Position numbers and translations under genes: made by a program
Notes under the pieces: generated by a model
Database searches by the model: none
What the model was told of the DNA's origin: nothing
What the model saw: only the letters and a program-made list of their open reading frames with translations
Shown: positions 39,327 to 49,291 of the stretch, piece after piece
Position numbering within the stretch: position 1 is the stretch's first letter
Layout of the letters: every line of letters starts with the position of its first letter
Source of the DNA: an uncultured delta proteobacterium
Lineage (GTDB): Bacteria; Desulfobacterota; Desulfobacteria; Desulfobacterales; B30-G6
Assembly (NCBI GenBank): GCA_963823335.1
Contig: CAWGLD010000004.1
Coordinates: 494,817-558,816, forward strand
Direction: 5' to 3'
Length of the DNA stretch: 64,000 nucleotides

Positions 39327-39403
39327 GGGCCGTTAGCTCAACCAGGCAGAGCACCTGACTCTTAATCAGTAGGTTGAAGGTTCGATTCCTTCACGGCCCA
39401 CCA
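39327..39403 (+). tRNA. tRNA-Lys (CTT)
   Basis: GGGCCGT/ACGGCCC acceptor stem, TAGCTCA D arm, CTGA-CTCTTAA-TCAG anticodon arm, GGTTCGATTCC, encoded CCA. Confidence 0.96.
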
Positions 39404-39993: not shown

Positions 39994-40032
39994 CCTTTTC
40001 TGCCTGTTTTGGTCCCCCAACGGGGGGCTAAC

Positions 40033-40123
40033 AATGAGCCTCCCCGGGGCAAGCTCCGGGGTATCAATCTCTCATTTTAGATTTTTTTCGCGGCAAGCCG
40101 CGGGGAATTAAACCCTAATCGAT
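40033..40123. repeat. REP-like double hairpin inserted into a lipoprotein gene
   Basis: CCCCGGGGCAAGCTCCGGGG and CGCGGCAAGCCGCG. Absent from the paralog at 51981-52496. Confidence 0.8.
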
Positions 40124-40570
40124 ATTAACTGTTTTGTCATCAATCATTTTCACCGTTGCCCGCTCCTTCCAGTTTTTCAGCGCATACCAGATACCGATTT
40201 GCCTACCGTCAGGGGTGACTATCTCTGAGCCATTTTGAGTCAGGGGAAAACCATTTCTCGAAGGGTTTAGAATATCAAACCATCTTTTCAGTAAAGTTTG
40301 TGTAAGATCAACGGGTTTCCAAAATTTTGATTCGAGATGATACTCATTTCGAATCCCGATCACGGTTCTCGGTAAAGCATCCGGTCCATTGTAATAGTAA
40401 GTGTGATTCGGCGGTATCTGGTAAGTTTCAAATGCCGTTTTTACCTTATCACTATGAACGAGCTTTCCATAGTTTGCATTTCCAGCACAGCTTGCCACAA
40501 AAACAACAGCAACCGATAATAAAAATAATCTTGTCGTACAATTTGCCCGTAATCGATTTAACATATTCAT
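40115..40570 (-). pseudogene. Lipoprotein, C-terminally truncated by a REP-like insertion
   Basis: Lipobox VASC. Paralog of 51981-52496. Displaced C-terminus VSPPLGDQNRQKR lies at about 39994-40032. Confidence 0.75.
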
Positions 40571-40664
40571 ATCTATCTCCCTCTGTAAAATCCGTGCTTA
40601 AATAGTTTTTATGGGATATCTTGACAGTGTCCTATTTTGTTTTGCCCCACCGGTGATATATGGA

Positions 40665-42444
40665 GAGACTGTCGAAAAAGGCATTTCGGCGAACCGGTTC
40701 ATCGCTCGACATTCTCGATTTCAATAGATCCATCTTTTTTACTTCAAGATGCTATCATATTTTACAGATTCAGCCTACTTATTTGGTCTGTACAGCCTAT
40801 GCATGCCCGTAATTAGCCACTTTCTCTATATTGTGTACCATGCAGTACAGCAACCACTGAATATTTACCTTTATCTTTCCCCTTAAGTTAAGCCTGTCCA
40901 TTCGTTTTTGGATGTGGATGTTTCCAAATACAGGTTCAACGATGGCAATTCTTCGCGGATAGATTTTACGACCTTTTTCAGATTCAATCTTCTTGATCAT
41001 TTCATGGGATATATTCTTGCCAGACGCATCCACATAGAATGTAAAATGTCGTTGTTTAGCATCTTCATACCTAAGACACTTAGCCCTGAGTCGACAGGAC
41101 CTACAATCTATCTCCCGAGAAATATATCTTTTTAAAAGTTTGCCCCTATGTAAACCAGGTTTCCCATTTCTCTTAAGCCGCTTACCATTTGGGCAAACAT
41201 AGTGGTCCTGCTTGCGGTCATGCTTAAAATCTGCAAATGTAAACTTTTTAGAGTTTGACTGATTGTTTATCCGACTTGAGAACCTCTCATCTCGATTACG
41301 GAATTTGTTGTCTGGAATATAGGCATCTAATTTTTCATCACTGCATTTATTAATATTCGTTACGCTGTGATAACTTGCATCGGCTGTTAATATCTTATCT
41401 TCGAAATAGTCCTCTGGCTTGCCGATGCTTTGAAGTTATTCTTTGGCACCATCAATCACAGGAGGCAGATTTTCATGATCAAGCCCTTTCCCTATTGCCT
41501 CGCCATTAACAATTACCTGGTGCTTGGAATCGACTAACGCCTGACAGTTATATCCCTGAACAGTTCCGTGTGAGGTATGCATTTTAACAGAATCGTTGTC
41601 AGTTACATTGCTGTGAAGTTCTTTTCCATAGGCACCAATTATTTTGTCGTTTTCTGAAAACCATTGCTCAATCTTTTCAGCCTGCCGCTTAAGTCTCTCA
41701 ATTTGTTTGTCACGATTTGCAGCCATCTGAGTCTTGGCCCTATCGTCTGATTGGTCTTTTTCAAGATGATCTCGAACGAACGACTTAATCTTATGTTCAA
41801 GCTTTTCTTTCTTTTTCTTCAAATCATCTATTTTCCCACTACATTCTTGGGATGCATTGGACGATAGCTTGCAGCCATCAATGGCAAAGAAGGTTCCGCC
41901 TAAAAGATTCTCTTGCTCGCATACTAAAAGAATATCGCTGAACAGAGGTTGAATTTGATCTTCCATAGAAGAAACGAATGAAGCAATGGTGCTGTGATCA
42001 GGACGTTGGTTGCATGACATCGCCATAAAAGTCACATTCTCACAACATGCTCGTTCGATTTGGCGTGATGATATCAACCCACGTGAATAAGCAAGCAAGA
42101 CAACTTTCAGTAGTATCTTAGGATTATAGGCACTGCGGCCGGTATCGTCGTTTTGATACCTCGTATCAAATACGGACATATCCATCCGCCGTTCCACAAG
42201 GGTGTGGATGGCGAACTCTAACGTCCCTGGCATCAATTGTTTTTGGAGGGAAACAGGTATCAATAAACTTTGAGAGTAGTCGTAGTGCTTATACTTTGCC
42301 ATGCCTAATTCCTGTATGTTTGGCCATTGTCATTTGCTCATTTACCTAAACAATGACTAGCATAACGGTAGGATATGTCAACGGTTTATAGAGATAATTA
42401 TACATCTTTTAAGGTTAGATAGGAGGATCTTTTTCGACAGTCTC
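40665..42444 (-). mobile_element. IS1182-family insertion sequence
   Basis: Perfect 16-bp TIR GAGACTGTCGAAAAAG / CTTTTTCGACAGTCTC with GGA on both flanks. Confidence 0.92.
40797..42302 (-). pseudogene. IS1182 transposase with one in-frame TAA at 41436-41438
   Basis: GRSAYNP, SSRQIE, PDHSTI, AIDG, GYN, then in the same frame ADASY, YVCPNGK, VEPVFGNI, HNI. Confidence 0.9.
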
Positions 42445-42535
42445 GGAGACAATCACCGGTTGAGACCGAGTTCATATATCATCAGTATCACAGTCTTATT
42501 AGTTGGGATAGGGCAACAGTAAAGGAAGATGGGCT

Positions 42536-42883
42536 TCAAGCAATCTTAACATTCTCTGCCCCTTTAAACAGTTGAATAATTTCCCTTACATAGGCGCATT
42601 CACATTCGGCCCGACACTGTCTTAATTCCTTCTTGTTCAAACAGTATTCTGGGCACTCATCTGTCCCAGTTTTTGGCTCCGAAAAAATTGGTCCGTCATA
42701 AAGATCGACAAAAAGATCGGCGGATAAGGTGATAGTATTCTTACAACTGTGATTGAAGTATAATAGGCCAGCTTCCAGATTTTTAAAATTCACTTGATAA
42801 CCGACAATCATTATATCCTGGTCGGCAATAAAATCTCGGCGGGTTGACCATTTATGCCCGCAAACTTTACACTGTTTAAACAT
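42536..42883 (-). CDS. Cys-rich hypothetical (putative metal-binding) protein
   Basis: MFKQCKVCG..W..R..F, FNHSC, CPEYC..C...CEC. Start taken at ATG 42883. Confidence 0.7.
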   Translation of the reverse strand: MFKQCKVCGHKWSTRRDFIADQDIMIVGYQVNFKNLEAGLLYFNHSCKNTITLSADLFVDLYDGPIFSEPKTGTDECPEYCLNKKELRQCRAECECAYVREIIQLFKGAENVKIA

Positions 42884-42940
42884 GAAGGTGCTTTCGTAAT
42901 TTTTAATATGTCGTCTGAAAACCAAGTATCAGGACGGTGT

Positions 42941-43122
42941 TGATGAATGGAGACAAGTCCAACTATCCGATAATTGAAAAAAATGCAAGATACCATCTGG
43001 CTATGCCCACGGTACCACGGAGGGGTCTATAGATGCAAGATTTGGCCTGTTGTGATAATTTTCGCACACCGGTAAAATTTTAGGGGTCTGATATCTACCA
43101 TTTTGTTGGAGGTACCGGCAAT
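42941..43122. repeat. ~180-bp inter-cassette repeat, full copy B
   Basis: Conserved blocks AATGGAGA, GATACCAT.TGG, ATGCAAGATTTGGCC, TTGTGAT..TTTTCGCACACCGGT, TGATA, TTTTGT.GGAG. Confidence 0.92.
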
Positions 43123-43141
43123 CAAAGAAACCAGTCCAATA

Positions 43142-43672
43142 TTACTTGTTCAATAGTGACCACATTGAATTTGTCAGTTCGTGCTTCAGATGATCACCAG
43201 TACGGTAGTGATCATTTTTTGCCCAATCATCGCTTACTTGATGCATCCAAGTAATGGGTTTCGGAGGGACATCTTCCCATTCAATGGTTGGTGGATAAAA
43301 GAGATAGATATCCCAAGCGACATGACCATCCCAACCAACACTTGTCGCAATCTCCTTTCCCGATATTTGTTTAGGATCATAGAAATGTTGAATACGATCA
43401 TCATTTAACAACTTGATGGTCGGTAATGCAGCTTCTAATGAATCTTCAGGCAGCATATTAATCCAAACAATGGACCCGTTGATATCGGTCTTAGGAAAAC
43501 TCTCAAACACATTCTTATGCACCGCCCGGGCACCTTGGTCACGTCACAATGGGCAAGTGGGGGATAGAAGGGCAAGGAATCGTATTTTTCCCTTTCCTCT
43601 GTTGAAATGGTCTTTTAGATGGTCCAGCGAGCCCAACAGCTTGATATTGTCCTTTGTTTCGCCGGTTTTCAT
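43142..43672 (-). CDS. Thioredoxin-like selenoprotein, 176 aa, CxxU motif (UGA at 43544-43546)
   Basis: AGGAG RBS, ATG 43672, MKTGETKDNIKLLGSLDHLKDHFNRGKGKIRFLALLSPTCPL-TGA-RDQGARAVHKNV continuing in frame into ORF 43142-43522. Confidence 0.85.
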
Positions 43673-43704
43673 TTTCGAATCTCCTAACTAAGAGTCTGAA
43701 GTCG

Positions 43705-44202
43705 CTAAGCCATTTTGAAAGATTTTTTCCCGGTCAATTTATCCACCACCTGGCGGACATCAGCCAAACATCAGCGGCCTTTGGGATTCTTATTGGCACA
43801 ATCGCATCCATCGGCTTTTTTCTCGGCTGCAATTTCAGCCATTATCGTAGATCGGCCATTTTTCTGATAATCCTGTTCAATGTCCCTCCTGGTATGCTTA
43901 AAACAGTAGCAGACCAAATCATCCAAGTTAAATTCACTGGTTTTTAACGTATTTGATTTAGCGGTATCCCGCACCAGCTGGCCGTTTAATGATGCAACGT
44001 ATCCTGCCTTTATCAGGGCATGCTTCATATCTTCGAATGAAAGCAATTCCGGATCATAGGAAACAACAGCTTTTTTCTCGGCATTACTGGCGGTAGCCTC
44101 CTTTACCCCCTCAAGCCCTTCCAGGGCCTTTACCACTTTGGGCTCTCACCCCATTCAGGTCATACCTTGGATAGACAGTTCGATCTTCAGATCTTTAGAC
44201 AT
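43705..44202 (-). CDS. Triple-selenocysteine HMA (CopZ-like) + 2Fe-2S-binding fusion protein, 165 aa
   Basis: MSKDLKIELSIQGMT-TGA-MG-TGA-EPKVVKALEGLEGV..VCYCF..CDCANKNPKGR-TGA-CLADVRQVV..MA-TAG. UGAs at 44155-44157, 44146-44148 and 43771-43773. Confidence 0.85.
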
Positions 44203-44380
44203 ACATTTCCCACCTTTGTTTATTCGTCACAACAAATTTCCAGATCAATAGTTTCACTGCGTTCAAGATTGTCAAACGATTCCAGTGCTTTCATTGCCCA
44301 TTGTTCCCCGGGGCAACCAGATTCGGTGATTGCCACATTGAGAAATTCTACAAGCTCTTTAGCAAGAACCTGTTTTCTTA

Positions 44381-44680
44381 CTATTTTGAATGCATAATTT
44401 CTCTGACTGCATTCGAAAGTGAATCCATGTCCGGTATGTTGTCAAAGGCTATGCGTTCATTGATAATAATCGATGGAACTGAAGGCATTCGCTTACAGAT
44501 TGTACCGAGTTCAGCGTGCCTCATCACACCCTCTTTAGAACTGACATCGACCACCGTCCACTGGAGAACGCCCTTCTCAAATTCGGGGGCAATTTCTTCC
44601 AGTATTGCAAGCGCCAAATCGCACAACATGCACCCTTTCTTTTTTGCAACAATTTCTACAATTACGTTTTGCAAATCCAT
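44381..44680 (-). CDS. Small thioredoxin/glutaredoxin-like protein (CMLC)
   Basis: CxxC after the first strand and cis-Pro motif SVPSIIIN..FDNIPD. Confidence 0.75.
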   Translation of the reverse strand: MDLQNVIVEIVAKKKGCMLCDLALAILEEIAPEFEKGVLQWTVVDVSSKEGVMRHAELGTICKRMPSVPSIIINERIAFDNIPDMDSLSNAVREIMHSK

Positions 44681-44757
44681 GTACCAGAATCTCTATTACA
44701 CATTTTTCAATTTTAAAATTAATCCTTTTTTCCAATGGCCCTATGTAAGGTCGAGTG

Positions 44758-44784
44758 GTGATAAATGGAGAGTAGTCACGGTTT
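44758..44784. repeat. Left-end fragment of the inter-cassette repeat (copy C)
   Basis: GTGATAAATGGAGA, identical to the start of copy F (49201). Confidence 0.55.
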
Positions 44785-45107
44785 AACAGACCCGTAAAAA
44801 CCTGTGATTACATCACATCCCGCTCTAATAATTGCCACGATCGCCATTACAGATATCATTTTTCTTACAAATTTGCAAAAAAGGGAAAATCGTCGAAATG
44901 ATCCTCCCGCATGATAACATAGAAATACAACGTGAGTGACGATTGCGTGTAGTGGTGATGTGTTATGGTATCTGCAATTATCGTAAAATACCGATGAGTT
45001 GGAGATAGTACGAGTTTACGACCTTCAAAGCGATCTGTGATATAAAAAGTGGCAAAACTAAGGTAGCTCTGCCACTTTAATATATCCAACCTGTACAACT
45101 TAGATTA

Positions 45108-45899
45108 TTAGTTCAGCGCTTCAATAAAGCAGCCACCGCCACCGCCACCGCCACCGCCACCACCATCATCGTTACTAATAGTGGCGTTAAAAGTACCAGT
45201 GTCACCGGTTACAGAATACCACCAGCCTGACATGCTCACACCATTTATTTTACCCCAAAACGCAAATTCCTCGTCATTCGGACCATCTCCATCGTCATGA
45301 AAATAGCCGTCAGGATGCAGCCAACCCTGTTTAAAGGCATAATCAGCACCATCAATTGTCACCGATCCGGTGATGTCGCCCAAGATTTCTCCATTAGATT
45401 TAATTGAGATGACTATTTTACCAGAGTTATCTCCAATATAGGTGCCCTTATAAGTTCCTACATATTGGTCAATAAAGTCGTCTGAAGTGATTTTACTGCC
45501 AATTAAATTTCCTGAATCAGCTGAATCTGTATCGGACCATGTTCCCGTAACCGACCCATTAGATGAATCGACTTCAATGGCGAATTGGTAGCCCCAAAGA
45601 TACGAGGGTCCGACAGAATAATTTCCGACCGTGCCTGCTTCACCTTCATAGTTAATCGAACTTGATGGGCCGATATCACCCTGGCTGATATCTGTCGAAT
45701 AAAACCAAAATTTTGCCCCTAAATTTATATCGAGTGCAAGATACCAAACACCATTATCATCGCCCGAATATGTGCCTTTATATAGGCCGTTATAATCTTC
45801 TTGGGCGCACCATGAATTTGGAGCCAATAAAAACAATAGAAGGGATAGGTATAGTAGGATGTGAGCTATTCTGCTTGGACTGTTGGTCACCATCAGCAT
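45108..45899 (-). CDS. Secreted acidic beta-rich protein with poly-Gly-CFI C-terminal sorting-like signal
   Basis: Signal peptide, repeated G.YKGTY.GD, ends GGGGGGGGGGCFIEALN. Terminator-like hairpin at about 45045-45080. Confidence 0.75.
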   Translation of the reverse strand: MLMVTNSPSRIAHILLYLSLLLFLLAPNSWCAQEDYNGLYKGTYSGDDNGVWYLALDINLGAKFWFYSTDISQGDIGPSSSINYEGEAGTVGNYSVGPSYLWGYQFAIEVDSSNGSVTGTWSDTDSADSGNLIGSKITSDDFIDQYVGTYKGTYIGDNSGKIVISIKSNGEILGDITGSVTIDGADYAFKQGWLHPDGYFHDDGDGPNDEEFAFWGKINGVSMSGWWYSVTGDTGTFNATISNDDGGGGGGGGGGGCFIEALN

Positions 45900-45991
45900 T
45901 TTTCCTTTCAATTTGAGATTGATTTGATAACGCGGGGGGAAAGATAAATAGGTGAAAGTTATTAACATATTTGGAGATTGAATGCAATTGT

Positions 45992-46162
45992 AATGGAGAG
46001 ATATCCAGTTATCAAGCTCAACCAAATTATTACCGATACCATCTGGTCATCACCAAGGTATTACGGCAGGGCCTATCAATGCAAGATTTGGCCCATTGCG
46101 ATTATTTTCGCACACCGGTGATATTTTAGGGGTCTGATAACCTTGTTTTTGTAGGAGGTATC
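45992..46162. repeat. Inter-cassette repeat, full copy D
   Basis: Colinear with copies B and E. Confidence 0.92.
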
Positions 46163-46219
46163 TTGATAACGTTTAAACATCTACGGCTTGACCGTAGCAT
46201 GTTTCTTGCTTGAATTATA

Positions 46220-46927
46220 TCAGATTGTTTTTTTTCTGATCAGGTAGATACCGTCACAGAAGGTGAGGAAGAGTTTCTCCACCCTGTTGTCAGCGTTTAC
46301 CTCTTCGTTAAAGAGGGCTATGGCTTTACTGGACTCATCTTTGGGCTCAAAGATCCGACCGTACCACAGGGCATTGTCAACAACAATGAGGCCGCCTTTC
46401 CGCAGAATCCTCATTGATTCGTGATAGTAAGCCAGGTAGCTGGTTTTATCAGCATCAATGAAGACAAGATCGGTTGCTTCGGACGGCAGGGATTTTAGAA
46501 TATCAATGGCTTCTCCCCGCTGCAGATTGATCTTGTGGCCCTGCGGACTCCTGTCAAAAAAACCTTGAGCGATGTCGGCATTGGCGGAATCATGTTCGAT
46601 TGTCAGCACCTTGCCGTCTGGCGGAATTGATTCGGCCATAGCCAGGGCCGAGTAACCGGTGAATGTGCCGATATCGATCACATTCCTGAATCCCGATAGA
46701 ACGATAATCAACTGCAGAAAACGTCCTTCAATCCGGCCGGTAAGCCAGTTGGGAGACTCGGTTTTGTTGAGAGTGTAGTTCTCAATCTCTTCAAGAAGCG
46801 GAGACAAGGGTGAGGTGTGGTCTGCGGCATATTGTTCGGCTTCCCACGCCACCATGTCCATAAAGGAATGGATGGCCTTACCGGTTTCTTGCTGTCCGTC
46901 TGCGTTTTCAGAACTATTTTTTTCCAT
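46220..46927 (-). CDS. SAM-dependent O-methyltransferase (caffeoyl-CoA OMT-like)
   Basis: IDIGTFTGYSAL, LVFIDADK, GGLIVVDNALW. Confidence 0.9.
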   Translation of the reverse strand: MEKNSSENADGQQETGKAIHSFMDMVAWEAEQYAADHTSPLSPLLEEIENYTLNKTESPNWLTGRIEGRFLQLIIVLSGFRNVIDIGTFTGYSALAMAESIPPDGKVLTIEHDSANADIAQGFFDRSPQGHKINLQRGEAIDILKSLPSEATDLVFIDADKTSYLAYYHESMRILRKGGLIVVDNALWYGRIFEPKDESSKAIALFNEEVNADNRVEKLFLTFCDGIYLIRKKTI

Positions 46928-46952
46928 TTTTCTCCTACCGATACCGGATACA

Positions 46953-47133
46953 GATAAATGGAGAGAAGTCCAGTTATCAGGTTTGATGTAAATATTGCCG
47001 ATACCATATGGTCATGCCCAGGGTACCACGGAAGAGTCTATGGATGCAAGATTTGGCCTGTTGTGATACTTTTCGCACACCGGTAATATTTTGGGCGCTT
47101 GATATCTTTGTTTTTGTTGGAGCTGTCTGCAAT
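46953..47133. repeat. Inter-cassette repeat, full copy E
   Basis: Colinear with copies B and D. Confidence 0.92.
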
Positions 47134-47172
47134 TTGGTGGGGTGTTATTTTCTGGTTTTCAATAGATTTTTG

Positions 47173-48855
47173 CTAAAGCAGGCCTCCTACAAAACAACCA
47201 TAGCCATCACCACCACCGGCATCCGACGTAGAATCATATTCAGGGGATATATTAGCCTTGACACCTGGACCGCCTATATCAACAATAATTCCATTTTCAG
47301 CTAAATCGTCATCTCCCCTTTTTCCATCAACAAAATACAGCGTGATGTTATTTTTATTAATTTTAGCTCCGGTCTGGCCGTTAAAAATGAATTCATACCA
47401 GTGATCAAATGGATCATCCGGGGTCAGGCCATACTTAGAATACGTGTTAAATGTAATCTCAGAGGGAAAATAAAAAGTTACGGATGTAGCGCCCCCGATG
47501 CGAATCCCTGCCACGGTAAATGAAAAAAATCCATATGAGAAATCTACGCCGGACGGATAATTGGTGTCTGGTGGTTCAATAACCGCTTTACAATTTTTAA
47601 TTGACGTGCCGGGAGGCGTTTCGAGCACCACGTAATCAGTCGCATTGTCAATCGCTAAAGAACTCACATTGCTTTGAAGACTGTCAAGTATACCATCATT
47701 ATTTCCATCACCATCGATTGGACCAGCATTTTCCTCTTTATTGCTAACACCATCATTATCATAATCTGCTAAGAATACAGCTGTAATGGTCACGTCAGAA
47801 TTGATAGATATTTTCTCAGGATTATCAGAAGAATCAAGCCCACCGCTCCATTCACTAAACAGCCACCCTGAATTGGCCGTTGCTGTCATCGTAATTAATG
47901 AACCCTTAGAGTAATAATCTTTTTCAGGATCAATCTCGACATTACCTGAACCAACGATATTTATGGTTATGCTCAACAACTTATTCACTGTATTTATTGT
48001 ATAGTTCTGATTTGATTGATTGTTAGTTACGTTACTGTAGCTCCGAGATGCCGGGGAAAAAATGTAACCCTCCTTTGTTGGGGTAACCGTACCACTCCAG
48101 CCATAAGTTACATTACGGCTGTAGTACCCTGAACTGTTTGTAGTATCTGTACCTCCGCCATTACCAAACGTTACCGTGACGCCACTGAATCCGTTGCCTG
48201 ACGAAGTGCGGACATAACCGGAAATGGTTCTATCCGGCTGAGCTTGTGTCCCGGTGTAGTTCTGGTTTGATTGATCGGCGTTTACGTTACTGTAGCTCCG
48301 AGATGCCGGGGAAAAAATGTAACCCTCCTTTGTTGGGGTTACCGTACCGCTCCAGCCATAAGCTATCTCATGACTGTAATACCCAGAGCTATTTGTAGTG
48401 TCTGTACCTCCTCCGTTACTGAACGTAAGCGTAACTTCGTTAATCCCTCCGCCTGAAGATGTACGAACATAACCGGAAATGGTATTGGCCTGATGAACCT
48501 GGGTCCCAATATAGTCTTGGTTTGATAGATTAGAAGTCACGTTAACGTAACTCAGTGATGCTGGGTTAAAGCTGAAACCATCTTTGGTAGGTATACTTTT
48601 ACCACTCCAGCTATTTGGGATACCTATGCTGTAATAACCAGATTCGTTCGTGGTTGTGGATCTGACATTATCGAATGTAACATTGACTCCCTCAATCCCA
48701 CTGCCTGATGATGTGCGGACATACCCGGATATCTCTTTTGCGAAACCATCAGCTACTCCAATGAATAATGAAATTATAAGCAGAATAAACAAGTGTAATA
48801 AGCATACGATAGGAGATATATTGCTGTAAGCAGTTTTTAATTGTTCTGTTTTCAT
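47173..48855 (-). CDS. Surface protein: three ~85-aa ISGYVRTSSG repeats, a B-repeat-like domain, a choice-of-anchor U-like domain and a GCF C-terminus
   Basis: Repeats visible in DNA and protein. DGNNDGILDSLQSNV, KYG.TPD...HWYEF, FVDGKRGDDDL..NG.IVD.GGP. Ends GGGDGYGCFVGGLL. Confidence 0.8.
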   Translation of the reverse strand: MKTEQLKTAYSNISPIVCLLHLFILLIISLFIGVADGFAKEISGYVRTSSGSGIEGVNVTFDNVRSTTTNESGYYSIGIPNSWSGKSIPTKDGFSFNPASLSYVNVTSNLSNQDYIGTQVHQANTISGYVRTSSGGGINEVTLTFSNGGGTDTTNSSGYYSHEIAYGWSGTVTPTKEGYIFSPASRSYSNVNADQSNQNYTGTQAQPDRTISGYVRTSSGNGFSGVTVTFGNGGGTDTTNSSGYYSRNVTYGWSGTVTPTKEGYIFSPASRSYSNVTNNQSNQNYTINTVNKLLSITINIVGSGNVEIDPEKDYYSKGSLITMTATANSGWLFSEWSGGLDSSDNPEKISINSDVTITAVFLADYDNDGVSNKEENAGPIDGDGNNDGILDSLQSNVSSLAIDNATDYVVLETPPGTSIKNCKAVIEPPDTNYPSGVDFSYGFFSFTVAGIRIGGATSVTFYFPSEITFNTYSKYGLTPDDPFDHWYEFIFNGQTGAKINKNNITLYFVDGKRGDDDLAENGIIVDIGGPGVKANISPEYDSTSDAGGGDGYGCFVGGLL

Positions 48856-49200: not shown

Positions 49201-49291
49201 GTGATAAATGGAGACAAGTCCAGTTATCAAGATCAACAGCAATATTACCGATACGATATGGTAATGCCCACGTTACCACGTAGGGGCTTAT
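49201..49291. repeat. Inter-cassette repeat, left part (F)
   Basis: GTGATAAATGGAGACAAGTCCAGTTATCAAG ... CCACGTAGGGGCTTAT. Confidence 0.85.

Follow-up and report, generated by a model that had tools for sequence, protein, structure and literature searches.

The DNA that we analysed, called the window throughout, is a stretch of 64,000 nucleotides from the genome of an uncultured delta proteobacterium of the Desulfobacterales (assembly GCA_963823335.1, contig CAWGLD010000004.1, positions 494,817 to 558,816; host genome G000, 4.37 Mb and 93.9% complete). Our subject is a row of genes between 43142 and 44680, all on the minus strand, encoding in order of transcription a CxxC thioredoxin-fold protein, a small Cys-containing open reading frame (ORF), a predicted fusion protein with three selenocysteine (Sec) residues and a predicted thioredoxin (Trx)-like selenoprotein with the motif TCPLU, with four in-frame TGA codons within about 1.5 kb. 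A preliminary description of this sequence had recognized a co-oriented row with triple-Sec and CxxU genes and four UGA recoding events; the row is real, and the recoding events are backed by TGA conservation, Cys/TGA swaps and the Sec machinery of the host. The genes and the hairpins associated with them are as follows.

43142..43672, minus strand: Trx-like selenoprotein, 176 amino acids, motif T-C-P-L-U; ORF with one TGA at 43544-43546; member of the core pair of genes defined below.
43705..44202, minus strand: triple-Sec fusion, 165 amino acids, HMA domain (U-x-x-U) plus CopZ-N-terminal/BFD-like domain (GR-U-C); its C-terminal domain supplies the second member of the core pair.
44220..44336, minus strand, with homology up to 44402: small Cys ORF ending in I-C-C-D-E, corresponding to the C-terminal half of a CMD/AhpD-like protein.
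44381..44680, minus strand: CxxC (GCMLC) thioredoxin-fold protein, 99 amino acids, physically the first gene in the row.
43740..43759, minus strand: hairpin resembling a selenocysteine insertion sequence (SECIS), 8-bp stem and AGGU loop, 11 nt past the GR-U-C UGA.
44113..44129, minus strand: SECIS-like hairpin, 7-bp stem and GGA loop, 25 and 16 nt past the first and second U-x-x-U UGA, respectively.
43517..43533, minus strand: weak SECIS-like hairpin with a 5-bp consensus stem, 10 nt past the TCPL-U UGA.

The last three genes are separated by just 17 nt (small ORF to triple-Sec gene) and 32 nt (triple-Sec gene to Trx-like gene), and on inspection of the sequence AGGTGGG and AGGAG stand 7-9 nt ahead of the two selenoprotein starts. 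A promoter and terminator scan gave counts the same as those of shuffled sequences; on the minus strand it placed no terminator-like site between the four genes and one upstream of the row, at 44908-44883. An Rfam scan of 40000-48000 returned just two matches, both at chance level. DNA contigs from other runs bridge junctions of the row (X2 record 16 over 43566-43716, X1 record 5 over 43612-43769 and X5 record 26 over 44185-44512) and therefore speak only for the existence of the same gene order in other samples, while a run labelled metatranscriptomic contributed four short contigs, none crossing a gene junction inside the pair.

Are the four TGAs Sec codons? In the fusion protein they read as M-T-U-M-G-U near the N-terminus (TGAs at 44155-44157 and 44146-44148) and G-R-U-C near the C-terminus (43771-43773), and the sequence is conserved on both flanks of every TGA. 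At the DNA level the TGA of the BFD-like domain is kept in 22 of 22 copies, in the context NPKG[KR]-U-CL; a Cys form of this position was found in none of the 22, and U144 aligns with a Cys of 2hu9, the N-terminal domain of Archaeoglobus fulgidus CopZ. Both TGAs of the HMA domain are likewise kept in all 11 fused HMA domains, those of the window and 10 related loci. For the Trx-like gene, a scan of one genome per species gave 53 loci (L010-L062), of which 51 cover the motif and two do not, and here Cys and TGA swap at both positions: 11 loci are CxxU, 18 UxxU, 19 UxxC and three CxxC (L035, L039 and L056), leaving 48 of the 51 with at least one TGA in the motif. A BFD-like partner is commoner with the CxxU form than with the other forms. 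Seemingly full-length database homologs show W at the TGA positions, and were therefore called under a code in which TGA is W, while others end at the TGAs. The host itself encodes SelA (610.4 bits), SelB (373.4 bits) and SelD (372.2 bits), each over its cut-off, along with a tRNA-Sec (75.4 bits).

If the TGAs were instead true stops, the two "selenoproteins" would be fragments or pseudogenes, in keeping with the products of 121 and 126 amino acids that remain when public gene callers cut at the TGAs, and with SECIS folding energies that are unremarkable. The conservation either side of each TGA, the alternation of Cys and TGA and the completeness of the Sec machinery all contradict this, and we consider it extremely improbable. 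Taken on all of the evidence, the predicted identity of the TGAs as Sec codons is established by computation. The hairpins lie at distances expected of SECIS elements, the best of them being the one with the AGGU loop, but they contribute little by themselves, because their folding energies are like those of shuffles and the same bases encode conserved protein: the one at 43740-43759 (z -1.11 versus shuffles) is kept in 22 sequences with a CG to UA double change in four, that at 44113-44129 (z -1.30) is kept in 11 sequences with a UA to CG double change in three, and that at 43517-43533 is less stable than shuffles (z +1.79), with a double change in one of 13 sequences. We also observed that a small conserved hairpin ahead of the main SECIS-like one (UGGGC-UGA-GAGCCCA, minus strand, 44139-44153, and likewise at 10 related loci) holds the second U-x-x-U UGA in its loop, which may be relevant to the decoding of two Sec codons only 9 nt apart. 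A separate observation concerns the selD gene of this genome (G000:C5:144246-145172), which has one in-frame TGA of its own, so that SelD is a selenoprotein in this host.

The N-terminal half of the fusion protein is an HMA domain by its Pfam score (PF00403, 57.4 bits versus a cut-off of 24.8), and its best matches in a comparison with the PDB are the metal-binding domains of copper ATPases, followed by MerP. Its U-x-x-U motif is that of NF041115 (UxxU_metal_bind), for which it gains 61.5 of the 95 bits required. The C-terminal half falls below the cut-off of Pfam Fer2_BFD (PF04324, 21.5 bits versus 26) and matches CopZ_Nterm_CC (NF047645) with 56.3 of 100 bits, over profile positions 70-137 of 138 only, and CopZ_Nterm_CU (NF045877) with 23.6 of 190 bits; every curated cut-off of the selenoprotein-aware NCBIfam models was missed. 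Against 2hu9 this half gave E values of 0.02-0.045, and the alignment contains the CxC...C...(C/U)C ligand pattern of the CopZ N-terminal Fe-S families: C98/C100, C135 and U144-C145 fall on CYC, C and CC of 2hu9, among which we take the cluster ligands to lie. Four conserved Cys of the BFD-like protein match CYC, C and the second C of CC in the CopZ N-terminal domain (CopZ-NT), and the Sec adds a vicinal U-C; across 19 sequences the domain residues C14, C16, C49, C51, C60(U) and C61 are invariant or nearly so. When the domain was modelled with AlphaFold2 (AF2; pLDDT 83.3), 2hu9 was the sole credible fold match (prob 0.96, TMq 0.57, E 0.22). The C-terminal domain is thereby related to the Fe-S domain of CopZ-NT, and a [2Fe-2S] cluster is presumed. 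Elsewhere in the host there is a second, stand-alone BFD-like Sec gene (G000:C1:1761472-1761669; L073:1495-1725, minus strand) that encodes 76 amino acids, 52% identical, with its TGA kept, with no Trx-like partner nearby and with what appears to be a copy of a dispersed repeat, described below, just upstream.

The TCPL-U protein, the product of a single-copy gene in G000, was matched by no Pfam or NCBIfam model at E<=1, nor did any of 17 members of its family match the thioredoxin-type Pfam models. Its AF2 model (pLDDT 90.6) is a thioredoxin fold whose closest PDB folds are TlpA/ResA/CcmG/DsbE and Sco-like proteins (E about 1e-4, TM about 0.5). It shares with these proteins the predicted fold and a CxxC-type motif at the start of helix 1, but it is only 9-18% identical to them, matches none of their sequence families, has neither signal peptide nor membrane anchor by our reading, and belongs to a family with a Sec motif in nearly all of its loci, as counted above. 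Neither selenoprotein of the row has a hydrophobic N-terminus when the sequence is read, and both are therefore taken as cytoplasmic.

Which of these genes belong together? We added to the 53 genome loci a metagenome scan with 324 Trx-like loci, the best 80 of which were used, and examined the neighbourhoods of this panel by tblastn, counting pairing where at least 300 nt lay upstream. The Trx-like gene is immediately preceded, on its own strand, by a BFD-like Sec gene in 64 of the 69 metagenome loci and 16 of the 47 genome loci, or in 50 of 85 when each cluster (at least 90% nucleotide identity) is counted once. The paired genome loci are titled Desulfobacterales, Desulfobacteraceae, Desulfobacula, Desulfacyla, "delta proteobacterium" and Olavius symbionts Delta 1 and Delta 3, the exception being L014, titled "uncultured bacterium". 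The fusion of an HMA(UxxU) domain to the BFD-like gene recurs in ten loci (L017, L021, L027, L101, L131, L133, L147, L155, L160 and L161). Among 20 related genomes, a DNA search found the complete row in none, and parts of the pair in G008 (75%), G009 (69%) and a few others; G008, of the same genus and the nearest relative with the feature, has the pair only. As read from these sequences, the conserved unit is a predicted two-gene selenoprotein module to which the HMA and CMD pieces are optional additions.

The preliminary description had taken all four genes for one packaged cassette, possibly linked in function to a Cys-rich gene at 42536-42883. Neither idea is supported. The CxxC gene and the Cys-rich gene were each found at 0 of the 133 related loci of the tblastn panel, and only the pair recurs, so that the row of four genes is a local juxtaposition rather than a cassette. 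The co-occurrence across Desulfobacterota that the same description had looked to as a check does hold for the BFD-like and Trx-like genes, and it fails for the CxxC gene, with the small ORF present only sometimes. The Cys-rich gene has look-alikes of its own elsewhere in the host genome and in relatives, and on these two counts we rejected it as a partner of the pair. The CxxC gene has a paralog of 80% identity on G000:C7, beside a repeat-rich ORF that by eye is a pentapeptide-repeat gene, and 736 relatives in the database (76-89% identity among the matches listed). Its own matches are weak (Glrx-like, E 9e-4; HUIPC_Trx_selen, NF047660, 58.6 of 105 bits), and with G-C-M-L-C where the HUIPC family requires H-U/C-I-P-C it lies outside that family. 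We also rejected it as the equivalent of the ArsE/MTH895-like thioredoxin of mer operons, the similarity extending over 28 residues only (E 0.039). The CxxC gene is unrelated to the pair and does not count among its conserved partners.

The small ORF (GCPGEQW ... ICC) is homologous to the C-terminal half of a CMD/AhpD-like protein whose CxxC half is absent. A profile built from it and its L014 counterpart found 45 library proteins at E<=1e-3, and its full-length relatives, of 119-131 amino acids, match PF02627 and carry a CEPC motif in a segment that the window does not have; the small ORF itself has no Pfam match and is not a full CMD/AhpD-like (PF02627) protein. At the position of the relatives' ATG the window reads TAT, and a canonical start codon first occurs as the GTG at 44336. 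A HesB/IscA-like identity, for which there was just a weak match to TIGR00049 (E 0.095), was set aside in favour of the CMD/AhpD-like one. The ORF is either a remnant or a short form, and a short CMD form also immediately precedes the BFD-like gene in L014, L089, L107, L129, L132, L152 and L165.

The neighbours of the pair in other genomes are what suggest a function. We scored as mer genes tblastn matches of at least 50% identity to the proteins of L012 or L029 that lay no more than 5 kb upstream, and counted the loci with the pair and at least 2.5 kb of upstream sequence. By this measure mer genes precede the pair in 13 of the 24 metagenome loci, in 4 of the 13 genome loci and, among the cluster representatives, in 10 of 27. 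They encode MerR and, in some loci, MerF and/or a MerA without its N-terminal HMA domain (NmerA), and in many related loci the pair comes straight after merR, merF and/or merA and is frequently the last element of such operons. Six loci illustrate the arrangements, each in gene order.

L012: MerR (143 bits, cut-off 150.85), MTH895/ArsE-like thioredoxin, MerF (79.6 bits, cut-off 50), MerA (504.7 bits, cut-off 454.45), a 174-amino-acid protein, the pair.
L029: MerE-like protein (under cut-off), MerR, thioredoxin, MerA (532 bits), the pair.
L034: MerA, then the pair.
L015: MerR fragment, MerF, the pair.
L014: MerR, thioredoxin, short CMD, the pair, membrane protein (DedA/TVP38-like by eye); in addition, a fragment of MerA and a degenerate second copy of BFD.
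L133: CopZ-like HMA protein, P1B-type ATPase (580 bits), MerR (149.7 bits), MerA (527 bits), triple-Sec HMA-BFD fusion as in the window, Trx-like gene.

If a mer operon is understood to comprise MerR, MerA and a mercury transporter, then L012, L029 and L133 have one. The MerA proteins of these operons have 467 amino acids and end in SCCV, and their match to PRK13748, the long MerA model, starts only at position 98, from which it follows that they are without NmerA. A conserved 174-amino-acid protein between merA and the pair in several mer operons (L012:6665-7186, also L095, L131, L153 and L163) has a signal-peptide-like N-terminus and no NCBIfam match at E<=0.001. There are MerR fragments beside the pair in L013 and L015, and immediately ahead of the Trx-like gene of L014 (2164-2469) a piece of MerA (residues 108-149) runs into a second, truncated BFD-like copy; it appears that the mer operons surrounding the pair decay and rearrange. 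Other surroundings occur as well: CsoR-like, CDF and FTR1-like genes in G008 (all three by eye from translations), with CDF-like matches to the G008 gene in L016, L026 and L131; arsenic-type contexts, namely DUF364 with ArsR and ArsP in L011 and ArsR-rhodanese in L017 and L122; and mixed contexts that include Pirin, flavin reductases, DsbD-Trx and rhodanese.

Because it is so often found inside mer operons of related sediment bacteria, the pair probably handles mercury or similar soft metals. Soft-metal handling had been proposed for the row from its sequence alone, and the gene contexts elsewhere support that proposal with mercury as the best candidate; at other loci the pair has CsoR/CDF or ArsR-type neighbours. 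The same description's "electron relay" may be an apt term, and the row would perhaps be transferable only among Sec-decoding hosts. We lean toward the view that the module is a cytoplasmic selenolate relay that captures and hands off, and possibly reduces, Hg(II) or another thiophilic metal. The metal would be bound at the diselenolate of the HMA domain, where there is one, and passed to the U-C pair beside the presumed [2Fe-2S] cluster, after which the CxxU thioredoxin-fold partner would resolve or release it. The pair would receive the metal by ligand exchange along vicinal or CxxC-type chalcogen pairs (MerF CC, short CMD CC, BFD-like UC and the C-terminal CC of MerA), and in mer operons it could deliver it to a MerA that has no N-terminal HMA domain of its own. 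Where MerA is absent, as in our host, the pair might instead sequester or resolve the metal. The thioredoxin-fold partner would regenerate the selenolates, and the [2Fe-2S] cluster could supply electrons.

Could the metal be copper? The fusion protein might be a copper chaperone like A. fulgidus CopZ that serves a CopA-type pump encoded elsewhere, its HMA domain binding Cu(I) and its Fe-S domain reducing Cu(II) to Cu(I). CopZ-NT is, after all, the only PDB relative of the C-terminal domain, copper ATPase domains are the top-scoring PDB matches of the HMA domain, the NCBIfam CopZ models match too, a CopZ and a P1B ATPase lie upstream in L133, MerR-type regulators score nearly as high on the CueR model, and contig C5 of G000 has an open frame of 818 amino acids, a candidate P-type ATPase at most, in which there is a match to HMA (33% identity, E 5e-5). 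What makes a copper chaperone unlikely in our estimation is that the recurrent neighbours are MerA, MerF and MerR, that a P-type ATPase was identified only in L133, with merR-merA in between (the loci were not queried with CopA), and that the order of the domains is the reverse of that in A. fulgidus CopZ, with the N-terminal, Zn-site half of CopZ-NT missing.

A role without any metal specificity must also be weighed, in which the pair would be a general selenol/thiol redox or repair module (oxidative or sulfide stress, Fe-S repair) that came to lie near metal genes through co-regulation. The Trx-like gene does extend, without a BFD partner, to Chloroflexota, Nitrospirota, Acidobacteriota, Kofleriaceae and an archaeon (Haladaptatus), the mixed contexts listed above would suit such a role, and the CMD/AhpD-like relatives of the small ORF are typical peroxidase-type proteins. 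A general redox module does not, however, account for the HMA fusions on the partner domain in 10 further loci, for the kinship of that domain to a metallochaperone domain, or for the tight, same-strand position directly after merA or merF in many loci, and we hold it to be quite unlikely.

A number of observations nevertheless weigh against the selenolate relay for Hg(II) or a similar metal that we favour. Of the loci with long flanks, roughly half lack a nearby mer gene, the neighbours include unrelated genes (e.g., AcnX and sugar ABC transporters in L097, L105, L111 and L122), and loci from the same habitats are not independent of one another. The MerR regulators fall just under the Hg-specific cut-off and score nearly equally on the CueR and ZntR models, and the HMA domain has its top PDB scores with copper ATPase domains. 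Folded as single sequences, the SECIS regions do no better than shuffles. In addition, we infer the identity of the metal, the binding of a cluster, the direction of transfer and the contact between the proteins. Finally, G000 has no MerA over the cut-off (best 385.4 versus 454.45 bits) and no Hg-type MerR over the cut-off (best 35.2 bits).

With no MerA over the cut-off in the host genome, a MerA-linked role cannot operate here as in mer operons, and the window contains no MerR, MerA or mercury transporter and no adjacent P-type ATPase, in agreement with the preliminary description as regards MerR and the ATPase. Is the row then the leftover of a decayed mer-type operon that has lost merR, merF and merA, truncated its CMD-like gene and given up its original role? 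The lack of MerA and MerR in G000 would be explained, as would a small ORF without its N-terminal half and canonical start; fragments of MerR and MerA do lie by the pair in L013, L014 and L015, and there is a truncated transposase gene in a region that is not common to most members of the genus. Both selenoprotein genes are intact, however, with four TGAs, SECIS-like hairpins and ribosome-binding sites, the short CMD form is present in seven other loci, and many loci with the pair have no mer genes. We accordingly give decay of the row in this genome little credence.

A bolder version of the mercury relay is that the pair represents a Se-based form of Hg(II) processing in anaerobic sulfate reducers, either replacing NmerA/MerP as the obligatory feeder of MerA or acting alone, as it would in this genome, and independently of MerA by detoxifying Hg(II), or stripping it from cellular thiols, with electrons from the Fe-S cluster. 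We put this forward tentatively, as something that is rather doubtful though worth stating.

How does the module compare with systems already known? Like A. fulgidus CopZ, the window protein combines an HMA domain with a CxC...C...CC Fe-S-type domain and has 2hu9 as its top fold match, whereas its reversed domain order, its retention of only the C-terminal half of CopZ-NT with no part of the Zn site, its Sec at three Cys positions, its Trx-fold selenoprotein gene partner and a context of mer rather than copA set it apart. With the mer accessory proteins (NmerA, MerP and the Cys pairs of MerT/MerF) the pair shares the HMA fold and vicinal or CxxC-type chalcogen pairs suited to exchange of Hg(II), and in relatives it adjoins MerA, MerF and MerR; unlike them, it is taken to be cytoplasmic, has Se for S, an extra Fe-S-type domain and a dedicated Trx-fold partner, and in the window and genome studied here it is not accompanied by mer genes or by MerA/MerR over cut-off, respectively. 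Both domains of the fusion are of known predicted kinds, because Table 1 of a 2026 review of selenoproteins lists among predicted families an HMA-UxxU family and a "(2Fe-2S)-binding protein (CopZ family) form 1" with the motif GxUC (PMC13188914). The U-x-x-U and GR-U-C motifs of the window resemble those of these UxxU and GxUC families, but here the two are fused into one three-Sec protein with scores below the curated cut-offs, and Table 1 gives for them neither a fixed Trx-like partner nor a mer-operon setting (PMC13188914). The excerpts of that review considered here also cover the HUIPC thioredoxin-like selenoprotein and multi-selenoprotein operons such as the Sec-assisted organometallic (SAO) operon and Tso (PMC13188914). 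The SAO operon, as portrayed in those excerpts, is similar in having several selenoprotein genes in a row, a metal or organometal chemistry and a Trx-like member (PMC13188914), but its families and host group differ, and the Sao NCBIfam models (SaoT, SaoC, SaoL and others) had no match at E<=1 to five proteins of the window. At the level of titles and the beginnings of abstracts, we found no description in the literature of the three-Sec fusion, the Trx-fold CxxU/UxxU/UxxC family, the fixed pairing or the mer setting; the scope of this negative also takes in parts of PMC13188914, of a 2022 review (PMC9312934) and of a paper on the Olavius symbionts (PMC1976440), and lies outside a survey of selenoprotein neighbourhoods (Haft and Tolstoy, 2025) that may already describe this one.

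The surroundings of the row in the window were described as an accessory region bounded by repeats, of which the first part is fair and the second is not. The region, which a tRNA-Lys (39327-39403) precedes, is absent from most members of the genus and includes a truncated DUF772 (IS-type) transposase gene (41436-42302, minus strand) with a 97%-identical copy on G000:C7. The repeats are real, and the copies near the row and beyond it are:

42942..43117, no strand assigned: copy of a dispersed intergenic repeat, about 170 nt, with further copies at 45988-46163, 46953-47128 and 49203-49291; a short look-alike stands at about 44757, and 44760-45005 also belongs among the intergenic repeats.

Repeats of this type, of roughly 90-170 nt and 75-90% identity, number in the dozens in G000, with clusters on C7 and C9, and in genomes of the same genus; as members of a dispersed, genus-wide family they are not the ends of a cassette, and we ruled them out as its boundaries. 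Each copy in the window lies upstream of a minus-strand gene, and the repeat might act as a common promoter or leader, or else be a small mobile element. Farther along, a predicted secreted protein (45108-46025, minus strand) with no Pfam match has at its C-terminus a run of 11 Gly and then C-F-I-E-A-L-N.

Desulfobacterota are largely the drivers of Hg cycling in anoxic marine sediments, and their mercury-resistance operons are less studied than those of the aerobic Tn21/Tn501 type. The pair that we describe is a concrete candidate for the route of Hg(II) to MerA, or for its neutralisation, in these bacteria. The Trx-fold family to which one of its members belongs is widespread, with a predicted Sec active site in the great majority of its loci, and has been missed by current Pfam and NCBIfam models, while standard annotation shortens the genes of both the Trx-like and the BFD-like selenoproteins. 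The triple-Sec fusion would offer a compact natural model for comparing Se and S in the ligation of soft metals. If our reading is correct, a conserved selenoprotein pair that follows a merA without a metal-receiving domain would tie the use of selenium directly to the handling of mercury, and Se-based processing of Hg(II), if it exists, would add to microbial mercury resistance a mechanistically new branch founded on Se-Hg chemistry.

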